DNA of 64,000 bases from Deltaproteobacteria bacterium (GTDB taxonomy: Bacteria > Bdellovibrionota > JACOXK01 > 2-02-FULL-40-11): NCBI GenBank assembly GCA_016198185.1, contig JACQJD010000046.1, positions 9,242-73,241 of the forward strand. The letters are read 5' to 3'. This document shows, in pieces, positions 16,791 to 39,127 of the stretch. The position numbers and the translations under genes were made by a program. The stretch's first letter is position 1. Every line of letters starts with the position of its first letter. Under the pieces are notes generated by a model that searched no databases, was not told the origin of the DNA, and was given only the letters and a program-made list of their open reading frames with translations.

Positions 16791-16794
16791 GCGG

Positions 16795-22403: not shown

Positions 22404-22981
22404 ACTTGAACCCCAGACTTCTTTCTAAAGTATTTGACCTCTCCAAAAATCGTCGCTGAGATTAAGAGCAAGCCTGATAAGATACAGACACTTCTCGGCT
22501 CTGGGTAAAGTCCCATTCCTTCCCCAACGGCACCCGTGGCCCAAAAAACACCTGAATGACGCGCCCGCTGCGTTGAATCTTTTAAAAAATCAGCTGCAAA
22601 ATAATAATAAGAAGGACCCGAAATAAATTCACCCAAACTCAATAAAATAACAGCAATAATGACTATCCGATAATCTGTCGCAAACCCGACTAAGAACATG
22701 CTGATCACAAATAAACTCATGCCAATTTTAATTTTAAGCCAGTGAGAACTTATTTTTTTGATCCGACCATTCAACAGAAGAAAACCCAATACAATTGTTC
22801 CAGCATTGAGAGCAACCCAGATATTACCTTCTGACTCAAATCTCAACTGACTGGAAATGGAGGGAATGCTTGAAAAAATCATCGTATAACAAGCCCAAAA
22901 TCCAGAGATAATTAAAAGATAAACAAGATCTGGATGAAGATGAAGGTTGAGAGTCGATAAGTGTACCACGTTGCTCCTCAC
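22400..22981 (-). pseudogene. MFS transporter C-terminal half (truncated paralogue of 26727..27863)
   Basis: 193 aa that align only with residues about 215-404 of the MFS protein at locus 2 (LSLGEFISGPS.. versus LSLGELILSPT..). No N-terminal half lies upstream. Confidence 0.5.
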
Positions 22982-23164
22982 ATTGAAGCAAAAAGAAACA
23001 AAGAACGATAATAAAATAATTCTTAAAATGAAAATTCATATAAACAACTCATTTTCAAGGGATATGAGCAATTATACCCTAAGCACAAAGAAAAAGAAAA
23101 GTTTTTTGTTTGTGTTTTTAATAATTTTTTAATCCATTTTTAATTTTCCTATTTAAAAAAATTC

Positions 23165-23215
23165 TGAAAAATTCTGGGGGGAAATTCTGGGGACACGATA
23201 CTTAATTCATCTTTG
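23165..23215 (-). repeat. Inverted copy of the 'gataagtattgtgtcccc(a/c)gaattt' repeat
   Basis: The reverse complement reads gatgaattaagtatcgtgtccccagaatttccccccagaattttt. Confidence 0.45.
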
Positions 23216-23334
23216 CTGAAATCGGGGGATTCCGATTACCGCGCTGTGTAATATGATGTGGCATCCCCTTTGCCACGACTCTTGGAATTCTTGCCATGCG
23301 TTTTTTTAATGCTAAAAAAGAGTGGGATTAAGAG

Positions 23335-23365
23335 ATAAGTATTGTGTCCCTCGAATTTTGCTGGC
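23335..23365 (+). repeat. Direct copy of the 'gagataagtattgtgtccc' repeat just downstream of AbiEii
   Basis: gagataagtattgtgtccctcgaatttt. Confidence 0.5.
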
Positions 23366-23372
23366 ATGCAAT

Positions 23373-24164
23373 TTATTCCAATCTGGAAATGAGCTGATCT
23401 TTAACGACTTGCACAGCCATTTTTGGATCATACTTGACAGAGGGTAAAATAAGGCCATCGATATCTTTTAGAAAATCTAAAGAATTCATTTTCTTGTCTA
23501 AGTTTTCGATAAAATCTTTTTGTGAAATCTTTACTTTTTGAAAATTTAAATATTTTTGAAATGCTAAATTAATTTTATCTGGCATTGCCTTTCCCATGGT
23601 TAATCCTGCCCATAAATCAAAAAGATCTCGCCCTTTTCTTCGTTGATAAAGCGCGCGTAATTTCGTTCCCAAAAGCTCCTCCAGTGAATAAGTCAAAACA
23701 TCAACCTTTCCTTGATACCAACGTGACTGAACACTCAAAGGATATTTCATAAATCCAAAAACCGAAAAATGTTCACGGCAATTCATTTCAATTTTAAGCC
23801 TCAGAGGCACAATTGGAGGTCCTTCTGAGTTAAAGCGATAAATCAAATTTACTGTTCCTTTTTTGTGATTTCTTTGAGGGGTTCCCAGCCATGGATCCAA
23901 TACCGCCCTTAAAGCAGTAAGCGGGAGACCAATGGGTTCTGATTTTATTTGAACAAGATCAATATCCTCGGAATAGCGTGCACTCTTTTTTAAATATAGC
24001 TTGGAAAGAGCAGTCCCTCCCCTAAAAGCAAATGTTTTTGAAAGTTCGGGATGTTTATAAATTTCAATTAAAGCTCGAGAAACAATTAAATCCTGTTCAA
24101 CCTGTGCATCGGATACCCAAGGTGTAAATTTTCGCCACTCTGTAATGAAATCTTTAGGAATCAT
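23373..24164 (-). CDS. AbiEii-like nucleotidyltransferase toxin (DUF1814)
   Basis: 'FAFRGGTALSKLYL...RYSEDIDLV' is a DUF1814 nucleotidyltransferase signature. Overlaps the upstream AbiEi gene by 4 bp. Confidence 0.75.
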   Translation of the reverse strand: MIPKDFITEWRKFTPWVSDAQVEQDLIVSRALIEIYKHPELSKTFAFRGGTALSKLYLKKSARYSEDIDLVQIKSEPIGLPLTALRAVLDPWLGTPQRNHKKGTVNLIYRFNSEGPPIVPLRLKIEMNCREHFSVFGFMKYPLSVQSRWYQGKVDVLTYSLEELLGTKLRALYQRRKGRDLFDLWAGLTMGKAMPDKINLAFQKYLNFQKVKISQKDFIENLDKKMNSLDFLKDIDGLILPSVKYDPKMAVQVVKDQLISRLE

Positions 24165-24967
24165 AGATCAGCCTCTATTTTCATATTTATCAGTATTTTC
24201 CATTTATCATTAGGCTTGGCCCCTTTTTTAGAAGCTGAAGGGACCAAGGGAACAAATGCTTTTACTCTCTTTTTTATGACATTAAAAAGGGGCAAGGCAA
24301 ACTTTTTTTTCTTTAAAATGGAATCGAATAAAAATCCCAGCCTTTGAAGAGAAGATAATTCTGACACAAACTGGGTGGCTAAAATCATTTTTTGTGCGTC
24401 CATTTTTTCTAGTAATTCATAAAGAATCGTTACAACATTATTGAGCCCCCCTACATATTGAGGATATGAGACAAGATCCAATGCGGTTGCCTCAGGAGAG
24501 GAAATCGCCACAAATCCACGAGGCGTTTTAATATCAAGTTTTGGAATATCTTTAACAAATTGTCTTGCAATGAAATGTATTAGAACTGATCCACATTTTA
24601 TTTTTTTTCTGTTTTTTGGAACAACTACTTGAAATTCTTGTGGCTTTTGATGACTCGCCCCATGAAACTGGGCCGCCGTTAATAATCCCACATAGTATGG
24701 CTGTTTGAGAAAATTCATTAAATCTGGAATGAATTGTTCTGGCGGGAGACACCCCAGGCTTTGATACTCCGGAGGTATAATGATATGAAATCCACGAACT
24801 GGAGAGACAATAAATCCTTTGGATTTGAAGCGACGAACAGATGCTCGAACGGCTACAGTACTCTTTTTTAAGGCTAAAACAGCATCTTTTGTCGTAAAAA
24901 AATACCTTCCCTCCGCCTGAAGTTTCCGAATCCATAAATCAAGGTTCTTTTTTAGCTTGGCAGTCAC
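24161..24967 (-). CDS. AbiEi-like antitoxin / transcriptional regulator
   Basis: The N-terminal part ('YFFTTKDAVLAL...') resembles the AbiEi winged-helix family. 268 aa; operonic with AbiEii. Confidence 0.7.
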   Translation of the reverse strand: MTAKLKKNLDLWIRKLQAEGRYFFTTKDAVLALKKSTVAVRASVRRFKSKGFIVSPVRGFHIIIPPEYQSLGCLPPEQFIPDLMNFLKQPYYVGLLTAAQFHGASHQKPQEFQVVVPKNRKKIKCGSVLIHFIARQFVKDIPKLDIKTPRGFVAISSPEATALDLVSYPQYVGGLNNVVTILYELLEKMDAQKMILATQFVSELSSLQRLGFLFDSILKKKKFALPLFNVIKKRVKAFVPLVPSASKKGAKPNDKWKILINMKIEADL

Positions 24968-25261
24968 TTTACAAAAGTAACACTTTTAGTTATCTTTGTA
25001 AAGTTTTAACCCACGATGGATAAACTGGCCTTACCCCAGTTTTGAGGTGAGAAGATAAGCAATAGGTTGCAATACGATGTAAAGCCATACGTACTGGAAA
25101 GTCTTTTCTGTAGCTTAACTCATGGCATAAAAATGAGGTTAAAATAAGTGAGTAAAATAAGAAGATTTTTTAGTAAAAACTCAGAATTATGTAGAGAAAA
25201 AATAGCCTCCCCCTTAAAGTTAATTTTTCATCTAAACCAAAAGAAGGAGGCAAAAATGACA

Positions 25262-25335
25262 GTTAGAGATAAGTATTGTGTCCCCCGAATTTCCCCCCCG
25301 AATTTTCCCGAATTTTCATCCCCCGAATTTCTTCA
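25262..25335 (+). repeat. Direct copy of the 'gagataagtattgtgtccc' repeat with a tandem (c)ccgaattt expansion
   Basis: gagataagtattgtgtcccccgaatttcccccccgaattttcccgaattttcatcccccgaattt. Confidence 0.5.
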
Positions 25336-25509
25336 GAAATCTCAGACCTCAAGATGTTGCAGCTGCTGCTGCTCTTCATTAAATCTTCATGATCAGTGTA
25401 ACTGCCTCTGAATCATGATAATGACTTTTTTGGCTATCTCTTTTTAACTCGCTTTTTCCAAAAAATTGATTAATAAGTTAGAGCTCATTAAGGAGGCCAC
25501 AAGACGATT

Positions 25510-26730
25510 GTGTTACTGGAACCCGGCTTTGGTGGCTTAGGGTACATCGAAGCTGTCAAAAAAAGAGGGCATGAACTTCTCGTATTGACACAACGAGAAG
25601 AAAATCCACAAGAACGAGGATATGCCCATCTTTTGACAGATAAAATCGTTGTAGACTTTGAAGATTTCAAAACCCTTGTCAACACACTCAAAGCTAATCA
25701 ACATTTTTCAAAAATTAAGGCCATTCTGCCAGCTATGGATGAAAATACGCACACCGCATCTCGCCTAGCGGGCTCTCTAGGTTTTCGTGCTGCTCCCTAT
25801 GAAGCAATTATGGCGGGGAGATACAAAGACATAGGCCGAAAAGTTTGCAAAGAAAAAAACATTCAAACACCTCAATCCATTAAAGTACGCACAGAAAAAG
25901 AAGCCCGTGCAGCAGCCCATGCGCTTGGCTATCCGGTTATTCTTAAACCTGCCGATGGCGCAGGAAGCGCACATGTGACATTGCATAACACTGAAACATC
26001 ATTGCTAGAAGAAGTTAACCTGCTTTCAACGGTGAAGACAAATTATGGGTATCCGGTGAATGGAGAATTTTTGATTGAGGAGTTTATAGACGGTCAGGAA
26101 TTTAGCGTGGAGATTTTTATGTGGGATTCACAGGTCAAATTTGCAAGCGTGACAGAAAAACACACCACACCGCCTCCGTGTTTTGTAGAGACGCTCCATG
26201 TTGTTCCAACGGCCCTTTTTAAAGAAGAGATTCCTGAAATCATTCATTTTGCTGTTTCCGCACTCACAGCTATTGGTTATTCGGATGGGCCTGCGCATGT
26301 TGAATTAAAATTGTCAACTTCCGGACACTATTTTCTCATTGAAATAAATCCGCGCATTGGGGGTGACATGATCTCTACTGATTTACTTCGAATTTCTTTT
26401 GGGATGAATATGCATGACGCCCATATCTGTTGGGCTCTGGAAGAGCCCTATCCATTTCCCTCTTCACAAGCACTCTGCGCAACGGCCATTTCTTTCTTAT
26501 TGGCACCCACAAAGGGGCGATTGCTAAAAGTAGCGGGATGGGAAAATCTCTCTCAACAGGCAGGCATGGTCAAACATGCTCTCTTTCATAAAATAGGTGA
26601 ATGCGTTTTTCCACCAACTGAAAATGCTGAACGATTAGGATACCTTATTTGCAAAGGGGACACACCTCACATTGCGAAAGAACATGTAAAGAGTGCACTC
26701 GAGAGCTTAAGCATAGAAATTTCTTCATGA
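25510..26730 (+). CDS. ATP-grasp domain ligase (locus 2)
   Basis: 'VILKPADGAGSAHVTL', 'EEFIDGQEFSVEIF' and 'HVELKLSTSGHYFLIEINPRIGGD' give the ATP-grasp (carboxylate-amine ligase-like) topology. Confidence 0.65.
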   Translation: MLLEPGFGGLGYIEAVKKRGHELLVLTQREENPQERGYAHLLTDKIVVDFEDFKTLVNTLKANQHFSKIKAILPAMDENTHTASRLAGSLGFRAAPYEAIMAGRYKDIGRKVCKEKNIQTPQSIKVRTEKEARAAAHALGYPVILKPADGAGSAHVTLHNTETSLLEEVNLLSTVKTNYGYPVNGEFLIEEFIDGQEFSVEIFMWDSQVKFASVTEKHTTPPPCFVETLHVVPTALFKEEIPEIIHFAVSALTAIGYSDGPAHVELKLSTSGHYFLIEINPRIGGDMISTDLLRISFGMNMHDAHICWALEEPYPFPSSQALCATAISFLLAPTKGRLLKVAGWENLSQQAGMVKHALFHKIGECVFPPTENAERLGYLICKGDTPHIAKEHVKSALESLSIEISS

Positions 26731-27863
26731 GAAAACCATCGCAATTAGCATTGATACTGCAATTTCTAGATAAACTTCTTTATTTTGCCATTGTTCCCAA
26801 CATTATCCTGCTCGTGCATCGTGCGGAGATGCTCAGCCTTTCAGATTTAGCCTTTTTCTTTGCCATTCATATTATTCCCTTAAGAGGCCTACCTGTCATC
26901 ATTGGATATTATGTAGATCGAGCCCATTTAAAACAGGCACTTTTGGGTGGATTTATATTACAAGCTTTCTTTATAATCTCGCTGTGTTTTGTATCACATC
27001 GTTGGTTATTTTTACTGTGCGGATTGGGCGCAGGGATGGGCGGTGGTATATTAGCGCCTGTTTTTAATAAAATTCTTGCAGATGGGCAACAACACCATGA
27101 AGAAAAACAAAATTTTCTATATCAATTTTTAGGAATTAATATTGCAGCTGCGGTGGCATCGCTTTTAGCATGGCCTTATCTTTCGCTGTATACACTTCTT
27201 TTTTTTATCCCCGCATGTGTCAGCCTGATCTTAATGGTAAAAAACTTAGATCCCATTACAAGAATGGCAGCTGATGAAGTTCATCCAAATTTTTTTAGAT
27301 CTTTAACTCACATTTTAAAACATGCCCCTGCGCTTAAAATATTAATTTTACTCTCATGCGAATGGGCCATGTATACAATGCTCATGAGTGGCATTCCTGC
27401 AATTGCGGTATCCATTAATGAAAAAATCAATGGCAATCTGTGGATAGGACTCAATGCCGTTACATGCATCCTGGGTTATTTTATTTTCATTCAAAAATTA
27501 AAAGACATGTCCAGAGATCACGTACGCTTGCAACAGGGAATGGTTCTATCCTCCATTGGCATGGTAATTATTGCCTGTGCACCTTCTTTGTTTTTTATTT
27601 TTTTGGCAGTGGTTGTATTTAGCTTAGGAGAATTGATTCTTTCCCCGACGGGAGCTCGCTCTTTAGCCAAGCTTGCTCATCCCAGTATGCGAGGTCAATA
27701 TGTCTCTTCGCTGCTGCTTGCGGGAAGTCTTGGAGAAGGTGGCGGTCAACTTTTTTTAAGCCTCTATCCTCACCCTAGAATGGTTTGCTTTATCGTAGGC
27801 ATCGTAAGTTTATTTTTCACCTGGTATTTGATGCACGCTACGCGAACACCACCAAATCCTTAG
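26727..27863 (+). CDS. MFS-type transporter
   Basis: Multiple TM helices; the start ATG overlaps the ATP-grasp stop (ATGA). The C-terminal codons are supplied by the right half of hairpin element F. Confidence 0.6.
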   Translation: MRKPSQLALILQFLDKLLYFAIVPNIILLVHRAEMLSLSDLAFFFAIHIIPLRGLPVIIGYYVDRAHLKQALLGGFILQAFFIISLCFVSHRWLFLLCGLGAGMGGGILAPVFNKILADGQQHHEEKQNFLYQFLGINIAAAVASLLAWPYLSLYTLLFFIPACVSLILMVKNLDPITRMAADEVHPNFFRSLTHILKHAPALKILILLSCEWAMYTMLMSGIPAIAVSINEKINGNLWIGLNAVTCILGYFIFIQKLKDMSRDHVRLQQGMVLSSIGMVIIACAPSLFFIFLAVVVFSLGELILSPTGARSLAKLAHPSMRGQYVSSLLLAGSLGEGGGQLFLSLYPHPRMVCFIVGIVSLFFTWYLMHATRTPPNP

Positions 27864-27912
27864 AAACATTGACTTTTTCTTTTCCACCCCTCTCGATGAT
27901 CTGGCTCTTTTG
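27834..27912 (+). repeat. Hairpin element F (right half only: type-1 arm and tail, fused to the MFS 3' end)
   Basis: cacgctacgcgaacaccaccaaatccttagaaacattgactttttcttttccacccctctcgatgatctggctcttttgg. The tail matches element E. Confidence 0.6.
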
Positions 27913-28024
27913 GACTTTTTCTTATCCTCCACGCGTCATCTTTGCTGAAATCGGGGGTTTATGACATACTAAATCAGTGATCAATGCTTCTATGCGTTTA
28001 TGAACAAAAAAATGAGAGGGTCAT

Positions 28025-29416
28025 TTGAAAAATAAAATTGTTGTGGTTCTTTCCATTTTTCTTCCCTTCGTTTTCTTCCTAGGTCATCTGCCAGAGTTAT
28101 CTATTCCTCTCGCATTTGCCAAAGAAAACCATTTTCTGATTTCCAAGGAAGAATTTCTCGCAAGTGATTTTTCGAAACATTTTAAAAAACGGGAATTCGG
28201 CAAAGCTCTAAATACTTTGGATAAGCTTATCAAAAAATATCCGAATGATCCGCTGATCCTGCGGTATCGCGCACTGACGCTCGACAGGCTGAGTCGTCGC
28301 AAGGAAGCCATCGCCGAATATAAGAAAATCCTTTCCAAAAATCCGAATCATGTTCCCACACGTCTTTTTTTAGGATTGGCTTATGCCCGCGACAAGCAGC
28401 CTGATCAGGCTGTCAAGGAGCTTCGCTGGGTGGTAAAACACAGCACATCAGAAAAATACCGCCATTGGGCCCAAGCACAGCTTACGCGTGTTAAGCGTGG
28501 CGGCAAGAAGGTGGAAAAACCCGTCAGAAAGAAACCTTATCTTCTAGGCAAGATCGGTGCCTATTATGACAGCAACCCTCTTCTTATTCCCAATGCAGAG
28601 AATCTTTCATCCCAGTCAAAAAAAGACGGCATGGATTTTCCGATTAATTTAAATGTTGGATATCCTTTGATACTCAAAAAAGAATTCCGGCTAGATGTGA
28701 TCTATGTAGGACAAACGCTCCTACATGATAAAGGGACAGATGATGTGGATTTTACGTCTCAAGGTGTCGCGCTAGATGCCAAAAAACGTGTGTTTTTTGG
28801 AGACCGCGCGGCTCTCATCGGCGGACGATATGATTTTAAGGCAAATTTTCTGAGGAGCGATCTCTTTGCTGTCATCAATCGCTTTCTTTTGAGCATGGAC
28901 ACTTCCTTTTGGAAAAAAACAAGAACAAGATTTTATGGGAGGTTGTCTTATTCCAATTATGGACCTGATGGCTCCAACCCACCGGTGACTTCGCGTGACG
29001 GCTTTCGCGAAGGCTTGGGAATCGTTCAAACATTTTTCCTCGCCAAAGACTTTAGAACGCATTTTTTCGCGAAACAGGAAATCAGTCTTGCCAATACACG
29101 GGGCGAGAATTTTAACCGTAAAGGGTCGCTCACCCGGCTTGGTATTCACGCGCCTTTGGATTTTCTTGGCCCGATAGACTTAGACGGCTCAACGGGATTC
29201 GACTATGGTACGTATCCTGAGTTTTCGTCTCTTTCGGTGTTGGATCTCAATGAACGTCGGGACATGCGTACGGACGCGTACACCGCGCTGACCTACCACT
29301 GGAAACCGAACTTTGCGACAAGAGGCCTTTACCGTTACATCAATTCTAACAATGATAACGATTTCTACGAGCGCGACCGGCATATTGCCGGTATGGAGGT
29401 TATATTCTCTCTATGA
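28025..29416 (+). CDS. TPR-repeat protein with signal peptide and a C-terminal beta-rich region
   Basis: N-terminal signal, then TPR-like repeats (ALNTLDKLIKKYPNDPLILRYRALTL... AIAEYKKILSKNPNHVPTRLFLGLAYAR). Confidence 0.45.
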   Translation: MKNKIVVVLSIFLPFVFFLGHLPELSIPLAFAKENHFLISKEEFLASDFSKHFKKREFGKALNTLDKLIKKYPNDPLILRYRALTLDRLSRRKEAIAEYKKILSKNPNHVPTRLFLGLAYARDKQPDQAVKELRWVVKHSTSEKYRHWAQAQLTRVKRGGKKVEKPVRKKPYLLGKIGAYYDSNPLLIPNAENLSSQSKKDGMDFPINLNVGYPLILKKEFRLDVIYVGQTLLHDKGTDDVDFTSQGVALDAKKRVFFGDRAALIGGRYDFKANFLRSDLFAVINRFLLSMDTSFWKKTRTRFYGRLSYSNYGPDGSNPPVTSRDGFREGLGIVQTFFLAKDFRTHFFAKQEISLANTRGENFNRKGSLTRLGIHAPLDFLGPIDLDGSTGFDYGTYPEFSSLSVLDLNERRDMRTDAYTALTYHWKPNFATRGLYRYINSNNDNDFYERDRHIAGMEVIFSL

Positions 29417-30189
29417 AAAACCGAATTTCAGTTTATTTCATCACATTTTTTTTTACTATCGGGCTAACATCATTAACTTTTGCCAATAATGTGGATCCAA
29501 GAGAAACGGCAATAGACTTGGCTGTCGGCGGAATGGAAGAAGGAAGTCGTCCTCTGTCATCTGAAAGCGGAGAAGATAAAATTCCAGGAGCCAATTTAAG
29601 TCCGGGCATGGACACGTCTGTGAAGGCTGTGGTCCCGGGACCAGGTGCTTCTGCCTTGGGTTCGGCGTCGGACACCGGTACGCCTGGCGGCGCGCCAGAA
29701 CAAGAGCCAGTCTCCGAACCCTCAGAATCAAGCGGAGCAAATTTGGATGATGTGACAAGTGGACTCGAAGCAGGCACAACCATTGAAACCGGCCCTTCGG
29801 ATGAAGGGGTTTCCGAGCCAACGGCTCCGGATAACGACAGAAGCATCATCGAGGCTGATGCCACCGTAGATACAACGGGCGGCACGCCCACAGTTGATAC
29901 TGATGTCTCGCTTGATACAAGCGCCGAAGGTGGTCTCATTGACGCCGATGCGGCCACAACCGCCGATATAGTTGACCAGGAGCTCACATCCGATGCGGGC
30001 GTACAGATTGATATGGGAGACAGCACCACCCTTTTGGAATCAACGCTTGGAAACGAGATCGGTACAAGCACCGCCCCCCCTGATGCTGAGGCTGACGCCG
30101 GCCTTGAAGCAGATGTCGAAGGCACGGGTTCTGGCGACGATGTGGCCGCAGATCCGGCTGACGGGCTCTCGGCTACGCCATCTCTTTAA
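29413..30189 (+). CDS. Acidic low-complexity secreted protein (D/T/G/S/E-rich), on a GC-richer patch
   Basis: Signal peptide MKNRISVYFITFFFTIGLTSLTFA; ATGA overlap with the TPR gene. Confidence 0.4.
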   Translation: MKNRISVYFITFFFTIGLTSLTFANNVDPRETAIDLAVGGMEEGSRPLSSESGEDKIPGANLSPGMDTSVKAVVPGPGASALGSASDTGTPGGAPEQEPVSEPSESSGANLDDVTSGLEAGTTIETGPSDEGVSEPTAPDNDRSIIEADATVDTTGGTPTVDTDVSLDTSAEGGLIDADAATTADIVDQELTSDAGVQIDMGDSTTLLESTLGNEIGTSTAPPDAEADAGLEADVEGTGSGDDVAADPADGLSATPSL

Positions 30190-30624
30190 TGGCAAAAAAC
30201 TGTGGGGAATACTGATCAACATTAGATTTAATTGTCCATACAGTGCTCTTAAAATTTCACTGTTCTATATCGGTGCCAGCTTACCTGCTCAAACGTCCAA
30301 ATGCAAAAGTGGCTCGACACCATTTACAAGAGATAATCACACTTTTGGGCTGCCAACTCTGGCAGCCCATTCCCACCTTTTTTAAAAGGTTTTTTCATTC
30401 CACGCCCTTTATTTTTTTTCAAAAAAGACACTCTTTCACCGTAAATTGACACCCTAGAATTTATCGTTACTTATTTTTTCAGCTTAAAGTTAAGATGTAA
30501 CCTTGAATATCGCTCCCATTCCAAAGTCTAGGCAGATCGTTTGGAAAATTAAAGTACGTGTAACAACCTTCAAGAAGATAGTTATTGAGAAAAATATTTT
30601 AAAGAGAGTGAGCCAAAACAATAA

Positions 30625-31629
30625 TCAAATTCTGATTTCTTTTTCTAACCACGGAATATGCTCATGCTTCCGCTTCCACCACAAATCCTCCCAAATATAA
30701 TGTACAGCAAGCTGTTTGTATTTCCCGTATCGCTCAAAATGTTTGAGAAGTTGTGAGACTGGAACAGGATTTTCAGGATTCCGATTGAAGAAAAGTTTGG
30801 AGTAAATTTTCTGTTCCCACGGCGAAACATGGTTGAAAAAGTCCAAATGGTGAAAAACGTCAAAGAGCAAATACCATACAGTTGCAGGGCCAACGCCATA
30901 CAATTTCAGCAATTCTGTCATTTGTGCTTCGCGGTCTTGTTTTCTCAATTTGTATTCGTCAATTAGGCCCTGCGAAAAATTATCATCCATTTTTCTAATT
31001 GATTTAGCGCGATAACCAACTTTGAGAGTGCGTAAATCATCTATGCTTACATTTTGCAATCTTCCCGGACTCCAAAAACACCAGAGTTTTTTGTCGTCAA
31101 ATTCCAGCAAAGTCCCGTAATTTTCCAAAAGTGCCTTGAACATTTGAACGGATCGACGCACCGAAGCATTTTGCAAGACAATCCCAATAATCAAATACTC
31201 ATAAAGTGAACTTGGATGTCCGGGGCGCATACCGCGCCATTTTTTAAAAATAGGGCCAAGAACGGAATCTTTGCTAAAGCTTTTGTAGAAATCCTCAAGG
31301 TCGAGATTAAAGTTATAGCGATATTGAATTTCTTCGATGAGTGAGTCTACGAATTCTGCTAATAATTTCTCCTTTGCGTAAACCTTAATCTCGATAAGCG
31401 GATTTGCGATAGTTCCTTTGCTGGAAAATTTGATACCAAGACATTTTTTCCGCCAATTCCAAGTTTGCCAGCGAATGCCTGGCTCCCAGTAATTATCGCC
31501 TGAAGTGAAATGGTCGGGTTTATGAAAAGTGGGGTCAAAAGCAAATGGTTTCGTCGGTTTTACTTGTGCTGTTTTTTGAAGTTTAAGCTTGATTGTTTTT
31601 TTCATTTTTTTACTGGATAAATCCGCCAA
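30625..31629 (-). CDS. HhH-GPD superfamily DNA glycosylase (OGG/AlkA-like)
   Basis: Helix-hairpin-helix 'LLKLYGVGPATVWYLLFDVFHHLD' with a downstream Asp, plus an N-terminal beta-domain-like region; 334 aa. Confidence 0.5.
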   Translation of the reverse strand: MADLSSKKMKKTIKLKLQKTAQVKPTKPFAFDPTFHKPDHFTSGDNYWEPGIRWQTWNWRKKCLGIKFSSKGTIANPLIEIKVYAKEKLLAEFVDSLIEEIQYRYNFNLDLEDFYKSFSKDSVLGPIFKKWRGMRPGHPSSLYEYLIIGIVLQNASVRRSVQMFKALLENYGTLLEFDDKKLWCFWSPGRLQNVSIDDLRTLKVGYRAKSIRKMDDNFSQGLIDEYKLRKQDREAQMTELLKLYGVGPATVWYLLFDVFHHLDFFNHVSPWEQKIYSKLFFNRNPENPVPVSQLLKHFERYGKYKQLAVHYIWEDLWWKRKHEHIPWLEKEIRI

Positions 31630-31790
31630 TAAGAATAGAGGATAAACTAATCAGAAAACCAAAATCGTGCATTGAAGTACAATACCATAACCAAAAAATG
31701 TTTCAATTGATCCCAATTGCAAAAATAACGAAAATATAGGCGTATGAAACAAACTTGACACAAATATTATTTTGAGTCAAAATAGTTTCA

Positions 31791-32366
31791 ATGAAGAAAT
31801 CTATACCTAAAAAGCTTTTAAATAGGCCCTTCTTAGTGAAAGAGGCTTTGGCTTGTGGCTTAAGCAAGGTCTATCTTACTCGCATGGTCAAATCTGGAGC
31901 GCTGGAACGCCTAAGCCGGGGGGTTTATCAAGTGAGTGGAGTTGATCAAGGCACCCCTGAAGAACTTTATAGAGTTGCCACACTTCGGTGCGGAATGCCG
32001 TCAGCGATATGTCTTTTGTCAGCACTAGACTATTACCATGTGACAGATCAAATTCCTAAAAAGACATGGGTCCTTGTTCCTCAACGTAAACGTGTATCAT
32101 CAAAGGATTTAAAGCTTATTCGATCTCGTAATCCCCTATGGAAAATTGGGATTGTAAAAACAAAAGACTACTGGATTACAAACCTAGAGCGTACTCTTGT
32201 TGAGTGTCTGATATACAAGAGATGGATCGGCAGCCAAGTGGCACTTCTTGCACTGAAACAGGCACTATCAGAAAAAAAAGTGAAACTGAGCAATGTATAC
32301 GATGTGGCTAAAAAGATGGGTGTCCAACACAGAATTTATTCTTATATTGAGGTATTGACGTCATGA
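31791..32366 (+). CDS. AbiEi-like antitoxin (pair 2)
   Basis: 'FLVKEALACGLSKVYLTRMVKSGALERLSRGVY' winged-helix region; 4-bp overlap with the downstream DUF1814 gene. Confidence 0.65.
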   Translation: MKKSIPKKLLNRPFLVKEALACGLSKVYLTRMVKSGALERLSRGVYQVSGVDQGTPEELYRVATLRCGMPSAICLLSALDYYHVTDQIPKKTWVLVPQRKRVSSKDLKLIRSRNPLWKIGIVKTKDYWITNLERTLVECLIYKRWIGSQVALLALKQALSEKKVKLSNVYDVAKKMGVQHRIYSYIEVLTS

Positions 32367-33220
32367 ATCGCGAAAAGGAAAAACAAATACATCGTTCTAT
32401 GAAAACCCTTGTGAAAAAAGATCCTCGTTTCAATATTAACGAGGTTCGAATTATCGTTGCCTTAGAACGTGCCATTGCTCGGTTATCACAAAATAAAGAT
32501 TTAGCTGAGCATCTTATATTTAAGGGAGGCTTTGTACTTCTCAAAAATTATGAGAGTCTGCGTTTCACAAGGGATGCGGATGCCTTGGCCACGGCCATTT
32601 CCAAAGATAAATTAAGAGATTTTGTCTGTAAGGCTTTAGAGAGGGATTTGGATGACGGTCTGTGGTTTGGTGATGTTCAAGTTCAAGAACTAACCGAACA
32701 GGGAGAGTATGGGGCTTATCGTTTTGATTTTGCTTTCCAAATCGGAGAACCTGATCTTAAAAAGATTCATAAACTCTCACGAATTCACATTGATGTTGGT
32801 TTTAGCGATAAGCTCCCAACAAAGCCACAGAATCAACTCATGCCTTCGGTTTTAGAATATGAAGAACCCATTACCTGGAAAATCTATCCTATCGAATATA
32901 TTGTTGCTGAAAAAATTCAGACCTTCTTTGATCGAGGTTCTACAAACTCTCGGGCAAAAGATATTTACGATTTAATTTATCTTTTTCCACGTTGTCAAAA
33001 TCAATATGAGCTTATACGAGCCATTGAAAATACATTTAAGAACCGGGGAAGCATTCTTCCAGAATCATTCGTGAATGAGGCCAGTCAGCTCGATATAACG
33101 TTTCTCACTCATGCTTGGCCAGGCGTGCGTATTCTTGAAAATAAGCTAGACTTTAACGAAACATGGAAATTGTTGATAGAATTTTTCAGAAAAATAGATC
33201 TCATGCGAACGGGAAAATAA
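32363..33220 (+). CDS. AbiEii-like nucleotidyltransferase toxin (pair 2, DUF1814)
   Basis: 'LIFKGGFVLLKNY...RFTRDADAL' DUF1814 signature; 285 aa. Confidence 0.7.
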   Translation: MNREKEKQIHRSMKTLVKKDPRFNINEVRIIVALERAIARLSQNKDLAEHLIFKGGFVLLKNYESLRFTRDADALATAISKDKLRDFVCKALERDLDDGLWFGDVQVQELTEQGEYGAYRFDFAFQIGEPDLKKIHKLSRIHIDVGFSDKLPTKPQNQLMPSVLEYEEPITWKIYPIEYIVAEKIQTFFDRGSTNSRAKDIYDLIYLFPRCQNQYELIRAIENTFKNRGSILPESFVNEASQLDITFLTHAWPGVRILENKLDFNETWKLLIEFFRKIDLMRTGK

Positions 33221-33317
33221 CATAAGAAAAAACATCGTTAACAACTCCTGATTTTGTGGAAAATTACCGAAATTGGAGAGCCTGCTTCCACTGAAAATTC
33301 AGACTGTGGAATGATGA

Positions 33318-33462
33318 AGTTCAATCTAACTATCCTTCCCCCCTCCCAAAAAATCTCAAAAAAGCCCCTGTTTCTACCAGCCAGACTATGGCAATCGGCC
33401 TCGTATTTAAGCCCTTGCTGTTGGCCCATGGAGACCGAATTTTTCGATATGTACCTATGAGG
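33318..33462 (+). repeat. About 140 bp 'P' element (copy 2)
   Basis: About 90% identical to 12385..12530, again followed by a hairpin element. Confidence 0.55.
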
Positions 33463-33473
33463 GTAACCTATTG

Positions 33474-33572
33474 CTTTGGTCAGGTGTTCGCGTAGCGCGC
33501 GGTGTGGCGGCCCAGGACGCGCGCTGGTCGAAATCTCTAAGGCCGCGTTAAATCTACGTTTTTTCTTCTCAA
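33474..33572 (+). repeat. Hairpin element D (type-1 left arm / core / type-2 right arm and tail)
   Basis: Near-identical to element C (...gctttggtcaggtgttcgcgtagcgcgcggtgtggcggcccaggacgcgcgctggtcgaaatctctaaggccgcgttaaatctacg...). Confidence 0.7.
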
Positions 33573-33746
33573 CTCAATAATATAATGTGCATACGCCTAT
33601 CCACTGTAAAACTTGGTATGCTTTTTTATAAGAATCTGCTTAATCTTCTCAATAAACTGTTTTGTCTCTTCTAAAAACTCTTCACACTCTGTATTTGAGA
33701 TTGAACCAGCATAATCATAGTCAGTCAAATTTCTTTTATTTCGACA

Positions 33747-34043
33747 CTAATCAAAATAGATGGCCTCATCTTTAAACTCGCCCTTATTGTAATGACGTAA
33801 AAAGAGAAACGTATTGGCATGATGCCCATAACCACTGATTCGGTATCCCTCACAATGTAGCAGAGCTGTTACCGTTTGAAGAGCAGCATTGTAAATGATC
33901 GCAAAACGTCGATCCGCACTTAAATCTTTAATGGCAGCATCTTCCAGGTCTCTGTCAACGATACTAAAAAGATCATAGATTTCCTTTTCAGTCGTTTGAT
34001 GTGTTTTAAGAACGCCTTTATTTAATAAATCTTTTAAACTCAT
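33747..34043 (-). CDS. HEPN-domain toxin-like protein (HepT-like)
   Basis: 98 aa with an R-x5-H motif (RISGYGHH). Overlaps the upstream MNT gene. Confidence 0.45.
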   Translation of the reverse strand: MSLKDLLNKGVLKTHQTTEKEIYDLFSIVDRDLEDAAIKDLSADRRFAIIYNAALQTVTALLHCEGYRISGYGHHANTFLFLRHYNKGEFKDEAIYFD

Positions 34044-34671
34044 CTTCCTTCCCTATTAAATAAACTTTCTTACCTAAGGCAACCTGTCTAACGAAATTAT
34101 CAGACTTCTTAAATTTATCCAAAAACTCTTTTTCAGAATACAAATGGGCGTTGATTTCTCGCCCTGTTTTTTCTGATATCTTTTGCGTCGTTGATGACAA
34201 AAGCTTTGCCCCTACAGAGCCTATAATCATGAGATCGATATCACTTTGGGGCATATCTTTACCTGTCGCCAATGAGCCAAATATAAATGAAAACCTAACC
34301 TTCCCCAACTTCATCAGATGCTCTTGAATAAGTCCCCCAATGGCTTCTGTTTTAAGGATGATTTTCTTTAATTCATTAAAAAGCATGAAGTCTTGGTTCG
34401 CCTTAAAATAGACCCTATTCCCAGACCGGGTAGAGGCTAGAAAACCGATACTGACAAGCTTTTCAATCTCTTGCTGAATAGCCCGAATCGGAACCCCTAA
34501 AAGGCGCTCCAGCTCTCTTTGATAAAAGGATTTTTCAGGAGACATGACAAACAAGGACAAAAGCTTAACCCTCGTTTTTGAAGAAAATAATGTATCTAAC
34601 GCAGTGCTCATATATGTATATATTTTATAGTCAATTGTATATAAAACATAGTCATTGTCAAGGGGAATCAA
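34018..34671 (-). CDS. Minimal nucleotidyltransferase (MntA-like) with an N-terminal wHTH
   Basis: 'FIFGSLATGKDMPQSDIDLMIIG' is the MNT GS..D.D motif. The N-terminal 'KTRVKLLSLFVMSPEKSFYQRELERLLGVP' is an ArsR/MarR-like wHTH. Confidence 0.6.
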   Translation of the reverse strand: MIPLDNDYVLYTIDYKIYTYMSTALDTLFSSKTRVKLLSLFVMSPEKSFYQRELERLLGVPIRAIQQEIEKLVSIGFLASTRSGNRVYFKANQDFMLFNELKKIILKTEAIGGLIQEHLMKLGKVRFSFIFGSLATGKDMPQSDIDLMIIGSVGAKLLSSTTQKISEKTGREINAHLYSEKEFLDKFKKSDNFVRQVALGKKVYLIGKEDEFKRFIK

Positions 34672-34745
34672 GACGCGCTATGAAGTATTAAACAATCGAA
34701 TTTTTATCCAGAGCTTGAAAAACAACTTAGGCTGTCACAATAACA
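34667..34745 (+). pseudogene. Third remnant of the 'gene A' C-terminus
   Basis: ...aaacaatcgaatttttatccagagcttgaaaaacaacttaggctgtcacaataa matches the end of 13498..14373 but is frame-disrupted. Confidence 0.45.
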
Positions 34746-35545
34746 TCGTAGGCTTTGGAATGTTGTTCAATGCGATAGGCTTGTTTACCAAAAAATTCCA
34801 TCAATGTGCATTCGGTATTGTTTTTGAAATATTCGAGATTTTCTGTCTTTAAGACCACTGCCAAAAAAGGAGACTCTTTTTTGTAAGAAACATCTCCCAA
34901 TGTTGCACGCGCTGTATCAGTGATCCAGATTTTACTTTGATCATGAAGCGTTATCTCGCCATGATGATTTTTACGCTCAAGAAGCTCTTCTAAAATAGGA
35001 CCCAATTTTTGTGACCGATCCCATAAAACAATACCTAAAACATGGGTGCACTCATTGTCATGTTTTAAGCTTAAACGACTTTTTCGCTCTCCCAAAACGG
35101 GGTCCGTTTCATACTCTGTAAACCAAATTTCAATCCCAGGATACAAAGGTTTCCTAAAAAAAATAAAATTCCAACCCGGGAGAGATGCCGTCGAATTATT
35201 TTTCCAATCATAGTTTTTATGTACGTATTGAATATCGTATTTCTTAAAAGAGGCTTCTTTTTTAGTGAAGAAATTCTTTAGATTTTTGTTCACTCGAAAA
35301 GACACGCCTGTCGGATATGGCTGTTGGCCAATTTCTTTTTGCGTTTTCAAAAAAACGTCATCATTTTTAATTTCCACAAATTCAAGATATTTCTTATCCC
35401 CGATGGCTAAAAATCGACACAGTTGCCCACCTTCGTGTTCAACGACATGTTCAGACTGAGTAGAAAATCCTAATTTTTTAAAACGCTCATACTGTTCACA
35501 TGATATCCATCGTGAAAATGCATGGTCATATCCAAATTCAAACAT
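34727..35545 (-). CDS. Hypothetical protein ('gene B' family, the intact copy)
   Basis: 272 aa. The C-terminus ...RIEQHSKAYDVIVTA recurs at 9948..10025. Convergent 3' overlap with 'gene A' remnants. Confidence 0.45.
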   Translation of the reverse strand: MFEFGYDHAFSRWISCEQYERFKKLGFSTQSEHVVEHEGGQLCRFLAIGDKKYLEFVEIKNDDVFLKTQKEIGQQPYPTGVSFRVNKNLKNFFTKKEASFKKYDIQYVHKNYDWKNNSTASLPGWNFIFFRKPLYPGIEIWFTEYETDPVLGERKSRLSLKHDNECTHVLGIVLWDRSQKLGPILEELLERKNHHGEITLHDQSKIWITDTARATLGDVSYKKESPFLAVVLKTENLEYFKNNTECTLMEFFGKQAYRIEQHSKAYDVIVTA

Positions 35546-35559
35546 AAAGTCAGTTTCTC

Positions 35560-35676
35560 CAGGTGTTCGCGTAGCGCGCGGTGTGGCGGCCCAGGACGCG
35601 CGCTACGCGAACACCACCAGGTTCTTAGAAACATTGACTTTTTCTTTTCCACCCCTCTCGATGATCCAGCTCTTTT
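35560..35676 (+). repeat. Hairpin element E (type-1 / core / type-1, long tail)
   Basis: aggtgttcgcgtagcgcgc - ggtgtggcggcccaggacgcg - cgctacgcgaacacc - accaggttcttagaaacattgactttttcttttccacccctctcgatgatccagctcttttgg. Confidence 0.7.
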
Positions 35677-35699
35677 GGGTTTTTTATACAACAATCAAG

Positions 35700-36023
35700 G
35701 ATTATCTGCATCTCGTCGCCCATAGTTTCAACCATTCAAAATCATTCGTGCTGGGCCTGCTCAAGCAATATAAAATTTCCCTAAGACCAAAACATGATAA
35801 CGTTGGCAAGAACCCCAATCAGCCTTTCGGCTATCAGATTTACCACGGAAAAAGATGCAAAGATAAAAATAAACAAAAAACCATAGATCTAATCCGAAAT
35901 CTTCACACAGCAGGACAATCCTTCAGACAGATCTGCTATGAATTATACCTCCAAGATATTACAAGGCGTAAGGGTGGAAAATGGCACCCTCAAATGATCA
36001 AAAGAATACTTAATCAAGCATGA
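35700..36023 (+). pseudogene. Truncated large-serine-recombinase-like gene (C-terminal 'recombinase' segment only)
   Basis: '...LIRNLHTAGQSFRQICYELYLQDITRRKGGKWHPQMIKRIL' matches the '...G.S.R.IA..LN..GIPTPRGGKW..STV.RIL' segment that follows the catalytic domain of serine recombinases. The catalytic N-terminus is absent, and the ORF N-terminus is made of hairpin-element sequence. Confidence 0.5.
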
Positions 36024-36045
36024 TCGATCTGTTGATTTCGGCAAG

Positions 36046-36576
36046 ATGAATGCGATATTGTTTTATTTGATGAAAGCTAAAGAAGAAAAACGTCCCAAAG
36101 ATATTGCATATTTGGATACCAACGTTATCAGTTTTTATTTTGACACAAGACCTGAAATTCAATGGATGCGTAACGCTACCCGTCAATGGTGGGAAAAAAG
36201 AAAACAGGATTTTTACGTATGCACATCGGAGGCTGTTGTCGGCGAACTGGAAGATGGAGGTTATTTGCATCAGCCAGAAGCCGTTAAGCTCGTAAAATCC
36301 ATTGCAGTTTTGCCAGGAAACGACTCAGTAGACAACATTGCCCAATATTATATTGAGCACTATTTAGCGCCGAAGGAAAATATCCAACGTTTTCGTGGAG
36401 ATGCAATTCATCTGGCAATTTGCGCTTTCTATCATGTCGATTATTTGCTAACATGGAATTTGAAACATTTGGCGAATGTAAATAAATTCAGACAACTTAA
36501 AATTATGAATGCTCGCATGGATTTATCAACGCCAATTATTACAACACCAGCACAACTTTTAGAGGAAACTATATGA
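36046..36576 (+). CDS. PIN-domain (VapC-like) protein
   Basis: 'IAYLDTNVIS', 'CTSEAVVGELE', 'GDAIHLAICAF' and 'LLTWNLKHL' give the conserved acidic quartet layout of PIN nucleases. Confidence 0.6.
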   Translation: MNAILFYLMKAKEEKRPKDIAYLDTNVISFYFDTRPEIQWMRNATRQWWEKRKQDFYVCTSEAVVGELEDGGYLHQPEAVKLVKSIAVLPGNDSVDNIAQYYIEHYLAPKENIQRFRGDAIHLAICAFYHVDYLLTWNLKHLANVNKFRQLKIMNARMDLSTPIITTPAQLLEETI

Positions 36577-36794
36577 AAGCAAAAAAACAAAAATCTCAAC
36601 TAGCAATACGTCAAGGAGAAGACCCCATTGAACATCTGAGACGCGTTAGAGCGGCCATTCTTGAACGATTTGATAATGATGTCTACAAATATGGCGCCTA
36701 TTTAAGAGAGAAAGAAAAAGAACACCAGGATCGGTTGGTGGATGTCGAGAAACTTAGAAAGTTGGGAATTATATCAACCAAGAAAATACCATAA
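36573..36794 (+). CDS. Small conserved partner protein of the PIN module (copy 2)
   Basis: 73 aa; ATGA overlap with the PIN gene; conserved in copy 1. Confidence 0.5.
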   Translation: MKAKKQKSQLAIRQGEDPIEHLRRVRAAILERFDNDVYKYGAYLREKEKEHQDRLVDVEKLRKLGIISTKKIP

Positions 36795-36859
36795 GTTTTT
36801 TTGTGAAAAAACTTCCAGGATAACAAATTATCGCTACCCTGGAAGTCAATGATATTTTT

Positions 36860-37813: not shown

Positions 37814-37883
37814 TTTAAGTCTCCTTTCAAGAGTTTGTTGTTCATATAGAAATACAACTCGGGAGAGCAATAGGTTCCCACAC

Positions 37884-39064: not shown

Positions 39065-39127
39065 ACTTCCATTTAAGGCCCTCGCTCAGTTGGTTAGCAC
39101 TCATTATATCGGGCGCCTTCGCGCCCT

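Follow-up and report, generated by a model that had tools for sequence, protein, structure and literature searches.

What kind of chromosomal region brings several small toxin–antitoxin (TA) and defence modules together with a set of repeats? The question is raised by positions 23165–36794 of a 64 kb stretch of DNA (the window) taken from a MAG contig of an uncultured groundwater bacterium, 'Deltaproteobacteria bacterium'. A first-pass annotation described this segment as dense in defence and TA genes and likened it to the cassette arrays of chromosomal super-integrons. The present analysis shows that its TA and defence assignments were largely right, and points with good confidence to a different setting, namely that the segment is part of a recombination-prone defence/TA island under gene decay, ordinary in kind. 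Confirmed within 23165–36794 are two intact AbiEi/AbiEii pairs, one wHTH-MNT gene and one VapC-fold PIN gene with a small partner. Four units are thus present, but they cover only ~36% of the segment (~4.85 kb of 13.63 kb), the rest being non-defence sequence: ATP-grasp/MFS genes, a Slam-like pair, an Ogg-like glycosylase and orphans. Throughout, it is family membership that suggests toxin activity, neutralisation and phage defence.

Both of the AbiE pairs that had been noted are intact and are supported by Pfam and PADLOC. In the first, on the minus strand, the AbiEii-1 toxin (23373–24164, 263 aa, intact) is a DUF1814 nucleotidyltransferase that matches Pfam AbiEii (3.8e-31) and, over its full length, the PADLOC AbiEii profile (8.7e-104). 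The nucleotidyltransferase motif GG...EDIDL is visible, and the family comprises at least 567 loci across phyla at ~50% identity. The AbiEi-1 antitoxin/repressor (24161–24967, minus strand; Pfam AbiEi_1 2.1e-47, PADLOC AbiEi 9.9e-92) is 268 aa long, or 256 aa from the ATG start used by NCBI, and the two genes overlap by 4 bp. The left flank of this pair (23158–23358) holds an inverted copy of motif U at 23182–23204 with 13-nt CCCCAGAATTT units, a 25-nt repeat at 23207–23231 whose second copy lies at 27936–27960, and a direct copy of motif U at 23336–23358. The right flank (25266–25330) begins with a direct copy of motif U (25270–25292), continues with CCCCCGAATTT units, and forms a 47-nt inverted repeat (89%) with 23158–23204. 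The two direct repeats quoted by the first-pass annotation are exact (23332/25266 and 23208/27937, displaced by 1–5 nt; chance expectation 0). No such bracketing inverted and direct repeats were seen around relatives of AbiE-1.

The second pair lies within a transferable unit on the plus strand (31745–33329), composed of a promoter with a palindromic operator, AbiEi-2 (31791–32366, plus strand; AbiEi_4 2.3e-10, PADLOC 1.9e-36), AbiEii-2 (32363–33220, plus strand; 1.9e-28) and a 109-nt tail. AbiEi-2 is a 191-aa protein of the AbiEi_4 type whose gene overlaps that of AbiEii-2 by 4 bp, and a promoter-like TTGACA-17-CAAAAT site sits inside a palindrome of the TTGACACAAA...TTTGTGTCAA type. The unit is 91% identical at the nucleotide level, over 1587 nt, to eight other metagenome contigs, with a sharp end to the homology and flanks unrelated to the window. 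The proposed divergence of the two pairs from each other holds: the two toxins share 24% identity across 174 aa, and the antitoxins differ in length and Pfam family. Their families suggest that both pairs work as type IV TA/abortive-infection systems: AbiEi would use an inverted-repeat operator to repress the operon that encodes it, and would counteract the AbiEii nucleotidyltransferase toxin.

Only the MNT half of the reported HEPN/MNT pair stands as an intact gene. The MNT protein (34018–34671, minus strand), a wHTH joined to a minimal nucleotidyltransferase, matches Pfam Polbeta/NTP_transf_2, PADLOC PDC-M05A (1.3e-50), NCBIfam MntA and an ArsR-type HTH; its true start is probably the ATG at 34611, and a promoter-like site lies at 34661–34634. 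The partner (UPF0332/SAV_6107-like, PDC-M05B; 33597–34043, minus strand) is a pseudogene. An in-frame TAG at 33747–33749 converts Gln99 of a 148-codon gene to a stop, leaving an ORF of 98 codons (33747–34043); with read-through the ORF continues to 33597, a length of 148 codons. In a homologue of 148 aa this position is Gln, and only the read-through product reaches a Pfam HEPN model. The AbiE proteins, MNT and one PIN protein pass domain, profile or fold tests. The 148-codon gene is cut before its C-terminal third, and therefore the pair has probably ceased to function as a TA system. It is also conceivable that the TAG is a consensus or minor-variant call. In this family the usual role of MNT would be to neutralise a HEPN RNase; the partner here has been inactivated by the nonsense mutation. 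The overlap between the two genes measures 26 bp both here and in the related contig L016, which is 92% identical over the unit (33580–34674); homology ends sharply at its borders and the flanking genes there are unrelated. PDC-M05 and PDC-S01 are candidate defence systems only, and the antiviral role of PDC-M05 is unconfirmed (PMC12988326).

The putative PIN toxin (36046–36576, plus strand; 168 aa counted from the second ATG) scores 17.9 bits against Pfam PIN, below the cut-off of 23.6. In its favour, 13 of 25 family members do match Pfam PIN, VapC structures match its AF2 model (pLDDT 91), and there are four conserved acidic positions. The gene overlaps by 4 bp with a conserved 73-aa ORF directly downstream (36573–36794, plus strand), the putative antitoxin, which has no Pfam, NCBIfam or PADLOC family; an ORF of 56–73 aa follows the PIN homologue in five other contigs, in unrelated contexts. 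The product would be a VapC-like RNase restrained by this small protein. Overlaps of 4 bp, said to be common to all modules, are thus found in three of the four (AbiE-1, AbiE-2 and PIN), the 26-bp MNT/HEPN overlap being the exception. A second PIN module exists, but it lies outside the segment (16797–17384), with ~320 nt of the PIN ORF deleted internally and the small partner retained. It follows a BrnA/CopG-like ORF (16322–16645) and an ATP-grasp tail fragment (16669–16797), the whole spanning 16322–17384 on the plus strand. The BrnA-like antitoxin placed within the segment is this same outlying ORF; it remains below threshold (CopG_antitoxin 26.5 bits vs 28, BrnA 23.6 vs 26.1), and no BrnT-sized ORF is adjacent. 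Two items of the first-pass inventory thus sit 6–7 kb beyond the range given for them, and one of its toxins is a pseudogene.

The segment lies in the right-hand half of a variable region of ~25 kb (about 11.3–36.8 kb) flanked by housekeeping genes, a label based on gene content and internal repeats; a closely related genome lacking the island was not found, and a scan with the flanking signal peptidase gave only a 35% relative. Unrelated cargo is interspersed among the modules: two ATP-grasp ligase/MFS pairs, a Slam-like outer-membrane pair, the Ogg-like glycosylase and orphan ORFs. Decay is evident in the HEPN stop codon, the deletion in the second PIN gene, a split PDC-S01 ATPase, half an MFS gene, recombinase fragments and gene-tail relics. 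One such fragment, of the serine-recombinase type (35661–36023, plus strand; Pfam Recombinase 7.1e-06), covers profile positions 2–51 of 102, the first half of the domain only, and is duplicated together with the PIN module at 16765–16940. Two recombinase-domain fragments, a tRNA-Asp 2.2 kb beyond the right-hand edge of the island and a somewhat lower GC at 13–25 kb would fit the decayed remnant of one integrated element (genomic island, ICE or prophage) that entered near the tRNA through a serine recombinase. This is unlikely, however: a signal peptidase, a small ORF and an ECF sigma factor separate the island from the tRNA, the only repeat of the tRNA is a 23-nt local duplicate 86 nt away rather than a distant direct repeat, conjugation, phage and replication genes were not found, and the modules have separate relatives in separate contexts.

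More prominent than the repeats originally quoted is a GC-rich palindromic repeat of ~100–130 nt, with six copies, all on the plus strand within 12.5–35.7 kb. The copies at 12548–12681 (a-a' arms; long form from 12399), 14844–14977 (b-a' arms) and 21046–21143 (a-b' arms) precede the segment; the last is a 98-nt unit, 98% identical to 33473–33570. At 27830–27960 only the right half remains, joined directly to the MFS gene at its 3' end, and the second copy of the 25-nt repeat follows it. A long form at 33320–33570 (hairpin core 33483–33534; 89% identity to 12399–12600) falls exactly between the independently defined AbiE-2 and MNT/HEPN units, and the full copy at 35552–35685 has a perfect 19-bp stem (35562–35580/35597–35615) with an extended outer stem and a fold of -37.4 kcal/mol (z -7.4). 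All repeats internal to the window lie in 9.8–36.8 kb, except self-complementary palindromes and two short repeats adjacent to the tRNA.

Chromosomal integrons are known to contain TA modules, some module boundaries here carry repeats, and the modules are individually mobile; an integron integrase could in principle have captured TA cassettes at attC-type sites. Yet none of the ORFs of 100 aa or more in the 64 kb contains a tyrosine-recombinase/IntI domain, and a crude attC-type scan (R''/R' boxes 50–150 nt apart, pairing in the fold) gave 0 candidates on both strands, with 0–4 in shuffles. The recurrent repeat has the wrong box order, GTT...AAC being opposite to attC, and in two copies a perfect 18–19-bp stem without extrahelical bases. 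The modules lie on both strands with their own promoter-like and operator-like sequences, and the stretches between repeats are multi-gene blocks of 2–7 kb, metabolic and envelope genes included. With no integrase in 64 kb, an empty attC scan and modules facing both ways, the integron reading fails: the region is not an integron, and cassette capture, largely refuted within the window, is highly improbable.

The same palindrome could instead be the att-like site of a dedicated recombinase, possibly of the serine type represented by the remaining fragments, that would insert, excise and shuffle modules in a cassette system other than an integron. Every copy lies within the variable region, the arm combinations a-a', a-b' and b-a' surround an invariant core as expected after crossover in the core, at 27830 the end of a gene is joined to a right half-site, and one copy adjoins the recombinase fragment at 35.6 kb, as another separates two independently delimited units. 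However, three MITE-like palindrome sub-families explain the arm combinations equally well. The window lacks an intact recombinase, many module boundaries do not carry the repeat, among them the two flanking AbiE-1 and the left one of AbiE-2, and in other genomes the ends of the same modules lack it. The repeat has no match in Rfam, and searches of three public sequence collections for its core found nothing, so that comparative support is lacking. An att-like role is accordingly doubtful; the repeat is a lineage-specific, REP/MITE-like element, although neither a target-site duplication nor a cognate transposase (RAYT or IS) was seen. Together with shorter repeats, it lies at several segment junctions, and these repeats were probably substrates of rearrangements and duplications.

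The source being a MAG, part of the architecture might be an assembly artefact in which shared repeats served to join blocks that come from different places or strains. Independent short assemblies of the same runs do stop at or inside repeats, for example at 33426 and 36123, and block order across the palindromic repeats is given by the MAG contig only. But the same assemblies reproduce the junctions within 23071–25276, 30692–33426 and 36123–38247 exactly (99.95–100% identity), and the individual modules and their defects are independent of block order, which makes the artefact rather unlikely.

The decaying defence/TA island is therefore preferred. In it, small self-contained pairs of genes, equipped with a promoter and operator of their own, would have been gained singly by horizontal transfer. 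Sequence comparison shows that the modules are discrete transferable units, AbiE-2 and MNT/HEPN being found elsewhere at 91–92% identity between unrelated flanks; the PIN and small-ORF pair recurs in unrelated contexts, and the AbiEii-1 family extends over many phyla.

Several known systems resemble parts of this locus. AbiE is a type IV TA/abortive-infection system of Streptococcus agalactiae and Lactococcus (Dy et al. 2014, PMC3985639; Beck et al. 2020, PMC7319586). The pairs here share its bicistronic abiEi-abiEii operon with 4-bp overlap, an AbiEi with HTH and C-terminal domains, the DUF1814 AbiEii and a palindromic sequence in the promoter region, but two unrelated subtypes, known from sequence, stand side by side (268-aa AbiEi_1 type and 191-aa AbiEi_4 type), and local repeats bracket AbiE-1. 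As in MNT-HEPN systems (type VII MntA/HepT; PADLOC candidate PDC-M05), a nucleotidyltransferase gene precedes an overlapping HEPN gene, with strong PDC-M05A and PDC-M05B matches; here, however, the nucleotidyltransferase has an N-terminal ArsR-like wHTH and falls far below the cut-off of the NCBIfam MntA equivalog, and HEPN stops before its C-terminal third. The PIN module shares with type II VapBC the VapC fold, four conserved acidic positions, a small overlapping partner and a mobile two-gene unit, whereas the partner lies downstream rather than upstream and belongs to no recognised antitoxin or DNA-binding family, and the PIN protein exceeds classical VapC by ~30 aa and does not reach the Pfam PIN threshold. 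Vibrio chromosomal (super-)integrons likewise pack many individually mobile TA modules with some repeats between them, but differ in possessing IntI and attI/attC and in lacking the mixed orientation, multi-gene blocks and metabolic operons seen here. REP, Correia and MITE-type sequences are palindromic intergenic repeats; like them, the repeat is a multi-copy, GC-rich, long imperfect palindrome of ~100–130 nt, intergenic and with near-identical 98-nt copies, and it differs in the missing target-site duplication and transposase. Defence islands, or TA-rich genomic islands, reportedly described by Makarova and colleagues in 2011, share the clustered TA, Abi and candidate defence genes, the mobile-element debris, the variable chromosomal setting and the frequent pseudogenes. 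The region shows no essential difference from these islands and fits this category.

By exact sequence look-up, the stretch analyzed lies on a 73.4-kb MAG contig annotated as 'Deltaproteobacteria bacterium' (locus tags HY390_, proteins MBI4040955-69). Housekeeping genes occupy the two ends of the window. The left flank (1-11.2 kb) encodes aminopeptidase P, flavin oxidoreductases, TruA, an RRM protein, a DEAD-box helicase and saccharopine dehydrogenase, and the right flank, from 36.9 kb, encodes a signal peptidase, an ECF sigma factor, tRNA-Asp and inositol-1-phosphate synthase among others, with Lon, ClpX, ClpP and trigger factor further along. Every match to a toxin-antitoxin (TA) or defence family in the window falls in the ~25-kb stretch between these flanks, as do all intra-window repeats other than self-complementary palindromes and two short tRNA-adjacent repeats. 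The interval 23165-36794, which the first-pass annotation described as dense in defence and TA genes, lies in the right half of this stretch, and TA/defence units make up ~36% of it. The same interval also contains an operon of an L-amino-acid-ligase-like ATP-grasp enzyme and an MFS transporter, a Slam-like TPR protein whose gene overlaps an acidic ORF, an Ogg-like glycosylase, a 272-aa orphan ORF and a recombinase-domain fragment. The region is an ordinary, partly decayed defence/TA island of known families, for which the first-pass inventory and coordinates need correcting.

Independent short assemblies from the same runs match exactly 23071-25276, 30692-33426 and 36123-38247, and all of them stop at or in repeats; the order of blocks across the copies of a palindromic repeat is that of the MAG contig only. 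A search for relatives through the flanking signal peptidase found no close one, only a 35%-identical relative. The 5' end of the tRNA-Asp gene (38988-39064, minus strand) has a 23-nt exact duplicate (39046-39068 and 39132-39154) located 86 nt upstream of the gene. The tRNA was rejected as the integration site of the island, as there is no distant att-type repeat and nothing that matches the duplicate at the far side of the island. Rfam searches, at gathering thresholds and, for the repeat regions, at permissive thresholds, returned two tRNAs and chance-level matches only.

The two AbiEi/AbiEii pairs are real and intact according to Pfam and PADLOC profile searches. The toxin of the first pair (23373-24967, minus strand) matches Pfam PF08843 above cut-off (3.8e-31) and PADLOC AbiEii over its full length (8.7e-104), and its antitoxin is of the AbiEi_1 type (PF09407, 2.1e-47; PADLOC AbiEi, 9.9e-92). 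The toxin of the second pair (31791-33220, plus strand) likewise exceeds the PF08843 cut-off (1.9e-28) with a full-length PADLOC AbiEii match, and its antitoxin is of the AbiEi_4 type (PF13338, 2.3e-10; PADLOC AbiEi, 1.9e-36). In both pairs the AbiEi gene is immediately upstream of AbiEii in a bicistronic arrangement with a 4-bp overlap. The toxins are only 24% identical and the antitoxins are of unequal length and from different families; thus, the earlier view that the pairs are not recent duplicates is correct.

The second AbiE unit (31745-33329, which takes in 46 nt before and 109 nt after the genes) shares 91% identity with eight other metagenome contigs, L017-L024, in which the neighboring genes are unrelated to those in the window. 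A predicted promoter-like site upstream of its AbiEi gene, TTGACA-17-CAAAAT, is overlapped by a palindrome that is conserved in L017 and is a candidate operator for AbiEi autoregulation. The first AbiEii belongs to a family with hundreds of relatives at ~50% identity in many phyla. In characterized AbiE systems, AbiEi represses its own expression and neutralizes the AbiEii nucleotidyltransferase (PMC3985639, PMC7319586). By family membership, the AbiEi proteins described here would autorepress and neutralize their AbiEii partners in the same way; AbiEii toxicity, neutralization by AbiEi and abortive infection are putative functions.

Both direct repeats quoted around the first AbiE pair are present exactly and are not expected by chance. 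A local motif, U (TAAGTATYGTGTCCCCNGAATTT), brackets the pair with one inverted copy (23182-23204) and two direct copies (23336-23358 and 25270-25292). Behind each of the outer copies, at 23182-23204 and 25270-25292, there are 13-nt tandem units, CCCCNGAATTT; copies and units together form a 47-nt, 89% inverted repeat whose arms are 2065 nt apart. The bracketing may mark either a cargo-carrying non-autonomous element or an att-type duplication. Motif U was not found in 80 loci of relatives of the first AbiEii, in its closest relative (L025) or in IMG/VR, and with no copy in those relatives it was rejected as a transposon end common to them. The second quoted repeat, of 25 nt (23207-23231 and 27936-27960), exists, but it encloses 4.7 kb that comprise the ATP-grasp/MFS operon in addition to the AbiE pair. 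Its left copy directly adjoins motif U, and its right copy the tail of the palindromic repeat described below.

Two pairs of ATP-grasp (L-amino-acid-ligase-like, with a LAL_C2 domain) and MFS genes flank the first AbiE pair, at 21174-22981 (minus strand) and 25510-27863 (plus strand). They are anciently diverged (27-34% amino acid identity) and differ in gene order. The MFS gene of the left pair is a relic comprising the C-terminal half only (22400-22981), and the idea that the AbiE unit split an MFS gene was rejected, as the missing N-terminal half is nowhere in the window. Further to the right, 28025-30189 encodes a TPR protein with a weak match to the N-terminal TPR family of Slam (surface lipoprotein assembly modulator). 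Behind it, with a 4-bp overlap, is a 258-aa highly acidic ORF rich in Ser, Thr, Gly and Asp that matches no family and has a high local GC content (0.51). One possibility is a Slam-like translocator paired with its surface substrate.

The HEPN/MNT pair reported earlier is only half intact. The MNT gene (34018-34671, minus strand) encodes an ArsR-like wHTH domain joined to a minimal nucleotidyltransferase; it matches PF01909 and PF18765 above cut-off and PADLOC PDC-M05A at 1.3e-50, and carries a GSx(n)DxD-type motif, seen as GSLATGKDMPQSDIDL. Against the NCBIfam MntA equivalog it scores 27.3 bits, with a cut-off of 60. The HEPN ORF, in contrast, stops after 98 of 148 codons at a TAG (33747-33749). 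The truncated ORF has no Pfam match and matches PDC-M05B over positions 1-80 of 146 only, while translation past the TAG shows that the frame remains open for 49 more codons. A near-identical 148-aa 'UPF0332 family' homologue from another metagenome (P0014) has Gln where the HEPN ORF has the TAG, and the ORF must be read through to reach the Pfam HEPN_SAV_6107 cut-off. The automatically annotated 98-aa 'hypothetical protein' is a nonsense-truncated HEPN toxin beside an MNT left without its partner, and clearly exemplifies the loss of a toxin.

The MNT/HEPN unit (33580-34674) is 92% identical to that of another contig, L016, where its neighbors on the two sides are an ATP-synthase-B gene cluster and an SLT gene and where HEPN is full-length. 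The two genes overlap by 26 bp in both the window and L016. The 4-bp overlaps claimed for all modules apply to the two AbiE pairs and to the PIN gene with its 73-aa partner, but not to this pair. TTGACA-16-TACAAT (34661-34634, minus strand), the strongest promoter-like site predicted in the region, falls inside the listed 217-aa MNT ORF, and the L016 product is called at 197 aa; the true start of MNT is therefore probably the ATG at 34611. In MntA/HepT systems, the MNT protein neutralizes the HEPN RNase. By family, the MNT protein of the island would have neutralized its HEPN partner in this manner. PDC-M05, like PDC-S01, is still a candidate defence system (PMC12988326).

One of the two PIN modules previously placed in the interval is there; the other lies outside it, at 16.3-17.4 kb. 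The intact PIN gene (36046-36576) falls below the Pfam PIN cut-off when this protein is considered alone, but 13 of the 25 family members match PIN. Its AF2 model (pLDDT 91) has top Foldseek matches that are all VapC, with probability 1.00, and the acidic positions D/E16, E59, D111 and D124 are kept in 25 of 25 sequences. PDB sequence searches with this gene and with the orphan ORF orf272 were uninformative, and it is the fold search on the predicted model by which the PIN assignment holds. No conserved upstream partner of the PIN gene was found. The conserved partner is instead a downstream ORF of 56-73 aa with no Pfam, NCBIfam or PADLOC family, which overlaps or closely follows PIN genes of this family (~160-170 aa) in at least five unrelated contexts; the PIN gene and the small gene therefore constitute a conserved two-gene unit. 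Word-indexed searches for homologues of the 73-aa partner and of the adjacent recombinase fragment gave self matches or three near-identical matches only. In VapBC modules, a VapC-type RNase is neutralized by its small partner, and the PIN protein would, by family, be such an RNase held in check by the downstream product. VapBC antitoxins are DNA-binding proteins (AbrB, RHH, PhD or HTH) encoded upstream, whereas the partner here is downstream. The ~165-aa PIN protein with its conserved small downstream ORF is a candidate reverse-order VapC-type TA subfamily present in unrelated genomes.

The block of recombinase fragment, PIN gene and small ORF is duplicated (16797-17326 versus 35924-36778), and the copy at 16.3-17.4 kb lacks ~320 nt of the toxin ORF but retains the small gene downstream. 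The BrnA-like antitoxin of the first-pass annotation did not survive. The ORF concerned (16322-16645) lies outside the interval, is under the BrnA and CopG cut-offs, and has no adjacent BrnT: there is no ORF of at least 55 aa in 16123-16322, and an ATP-grasp fragment follows it. This fragment (16669-16797) is the tail of a gene, one of the relics in the island. The AAA_14/DUF4143 ATPase of PDC-S01 (14954-16123, minus strand) is broken into ORFs of 195 and 185 aa and is therefore probably a frameshifted pseudogene. Between the degraded PIN module and a copy of the palindromic repeat, 17374-20850 (minus strand) encodes an 1158-aa ORF with no significant Pfam, NCBIfam or PADLOC match. Two orphan ORFs, orf291 (plus strand) and orf272 (minus strand), in the segments 13498-14373 and 34684-35545, match no family either; a convergent relic at 9797-10031 contains the 3' tails of both, and the intact orf272 has a fragment of the orf291 tail (34684-34740) directly beside it. 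At one time they may have made up a convergent two-gene unit with several copies.

The most prominent repeat of the island, absent from those quoted in the first-pass annotation, is a GC-rich palindromic element with six copies, at 12548, 14844, 21046, 33473, 35552 and, as a right half only, 27830. Its core, AGCGCGCGGTGTGGCGGCCCARGACGCGYGCT, is invariant; the flanking arms are of the a/a' (GGTGTTCGCGTAGCGCGCG) or the b/b' (ATTTCGACCAGCGCGCG) type, and the T-rich tail that follows likewise has two variants. The arms combine as a-a', as a-b' in two 98-nt copies that are 98% identical to each other, and as b-a'. Folded as DNA, full a-a' copies reach -31 and -37 kcal/mol (z of -5.1 and -7.4), and the 33473 copy lies exactly between the second AbiE unit and the MNT/HEPN unit. 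The core has no exact-pattern match in genome_contigs, metagenome_contigs or viral_contigs or in the fetched loci, Rfam has no match to the repeat, and a consensus scan called it neither promoter nor terminator. The two 98%-identical copies show no evident target-site duplication, and no transposase is present in the window. A 10-mer, TTCAATCTAA (33320-33329 and 12399-12408), ends the AbiE unit common to L017-L024 and also opens a long repeat common to 12399-12600 and 33320-33525; it may be a junction microhomology. Further repeats include tandem 18-nt units, ATTCCGARYGAACAYGTC, at 62133-62222, and related sequences, GTCATTCCGAACGAAGTGAGGAATC, that form an inverted pair (11589-11629 and 12219-12259) around a 172-aa ORF (11675-12193). 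The housekeeping flanks contain a perfect 39-nt palindrome with a 14-nt spacer (50280-50371) and a 49-nt, 94% inverted repeat (~4866-5166), both unrelated to the island repeat.

The palindromic repeat could in principle be the recombination site of a non-integron type of cassette shuffling. A crossover inside the invariant core would swap the flanking arms and, along with them, whole TA/defence modules, and the serine-recombinase fragments would be leftovers of the shuffling enzyme. Such crossovers would account for the three ways in which the arms combine, for the half-site that runs into a gene end and for the copy located exactly between two units that are mobile independently of each other. 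Neither the combinations nor the positions of the copies require this scheme, although they are compatible with it, and we regard it as highly improbable. The repeat is lineage-specific and marks island junctions; were it a true recombination site, it would represent a new way of assembling defence islands. As it stands, the significance of the region is little beyond annotation: one more TA/defence island, in a poorly sampled groundwater lineage. Relatives in unrelated contexts, promoter-like sites of their own and a spread over many phyla, as judged by sequence comparison, are all usual for TA/Abi modules that move horizontally.

The architecture had been likened to the cassette arrays of chromosomal super-integrons. 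Across the 64-kb window of the 73.4-kb contig, Pfam found no integrase domain in any non-nested ORF of 100 aa or longer, and a crude scan for attC-like RYYYAAC/GTTRRRY pairs with boxes that pair in the fold gave 0 candidates, versus 0-4 in shuffles. The recurrent hairpin has GTT on its 5' side and AAC on its 3' side, the order opposite to attC, and full palindromic copies have no extrahelical bases. The two negative searches, together with the reversed boxes, mixed gene orientations and multi-gene blocks, led us to reject the integron analogy. As a multi-copy short element with a long palindrome, the repeat resembles REP/MITE-type elements. Integron cassettes are mostly co-oriented, single-ORF and promoterless, whereas the inter-repeat blocks of the island are 2-7 kb long and multi-gene, with genes in mixed orientations and modules that have their own predicted promoter-like sites.
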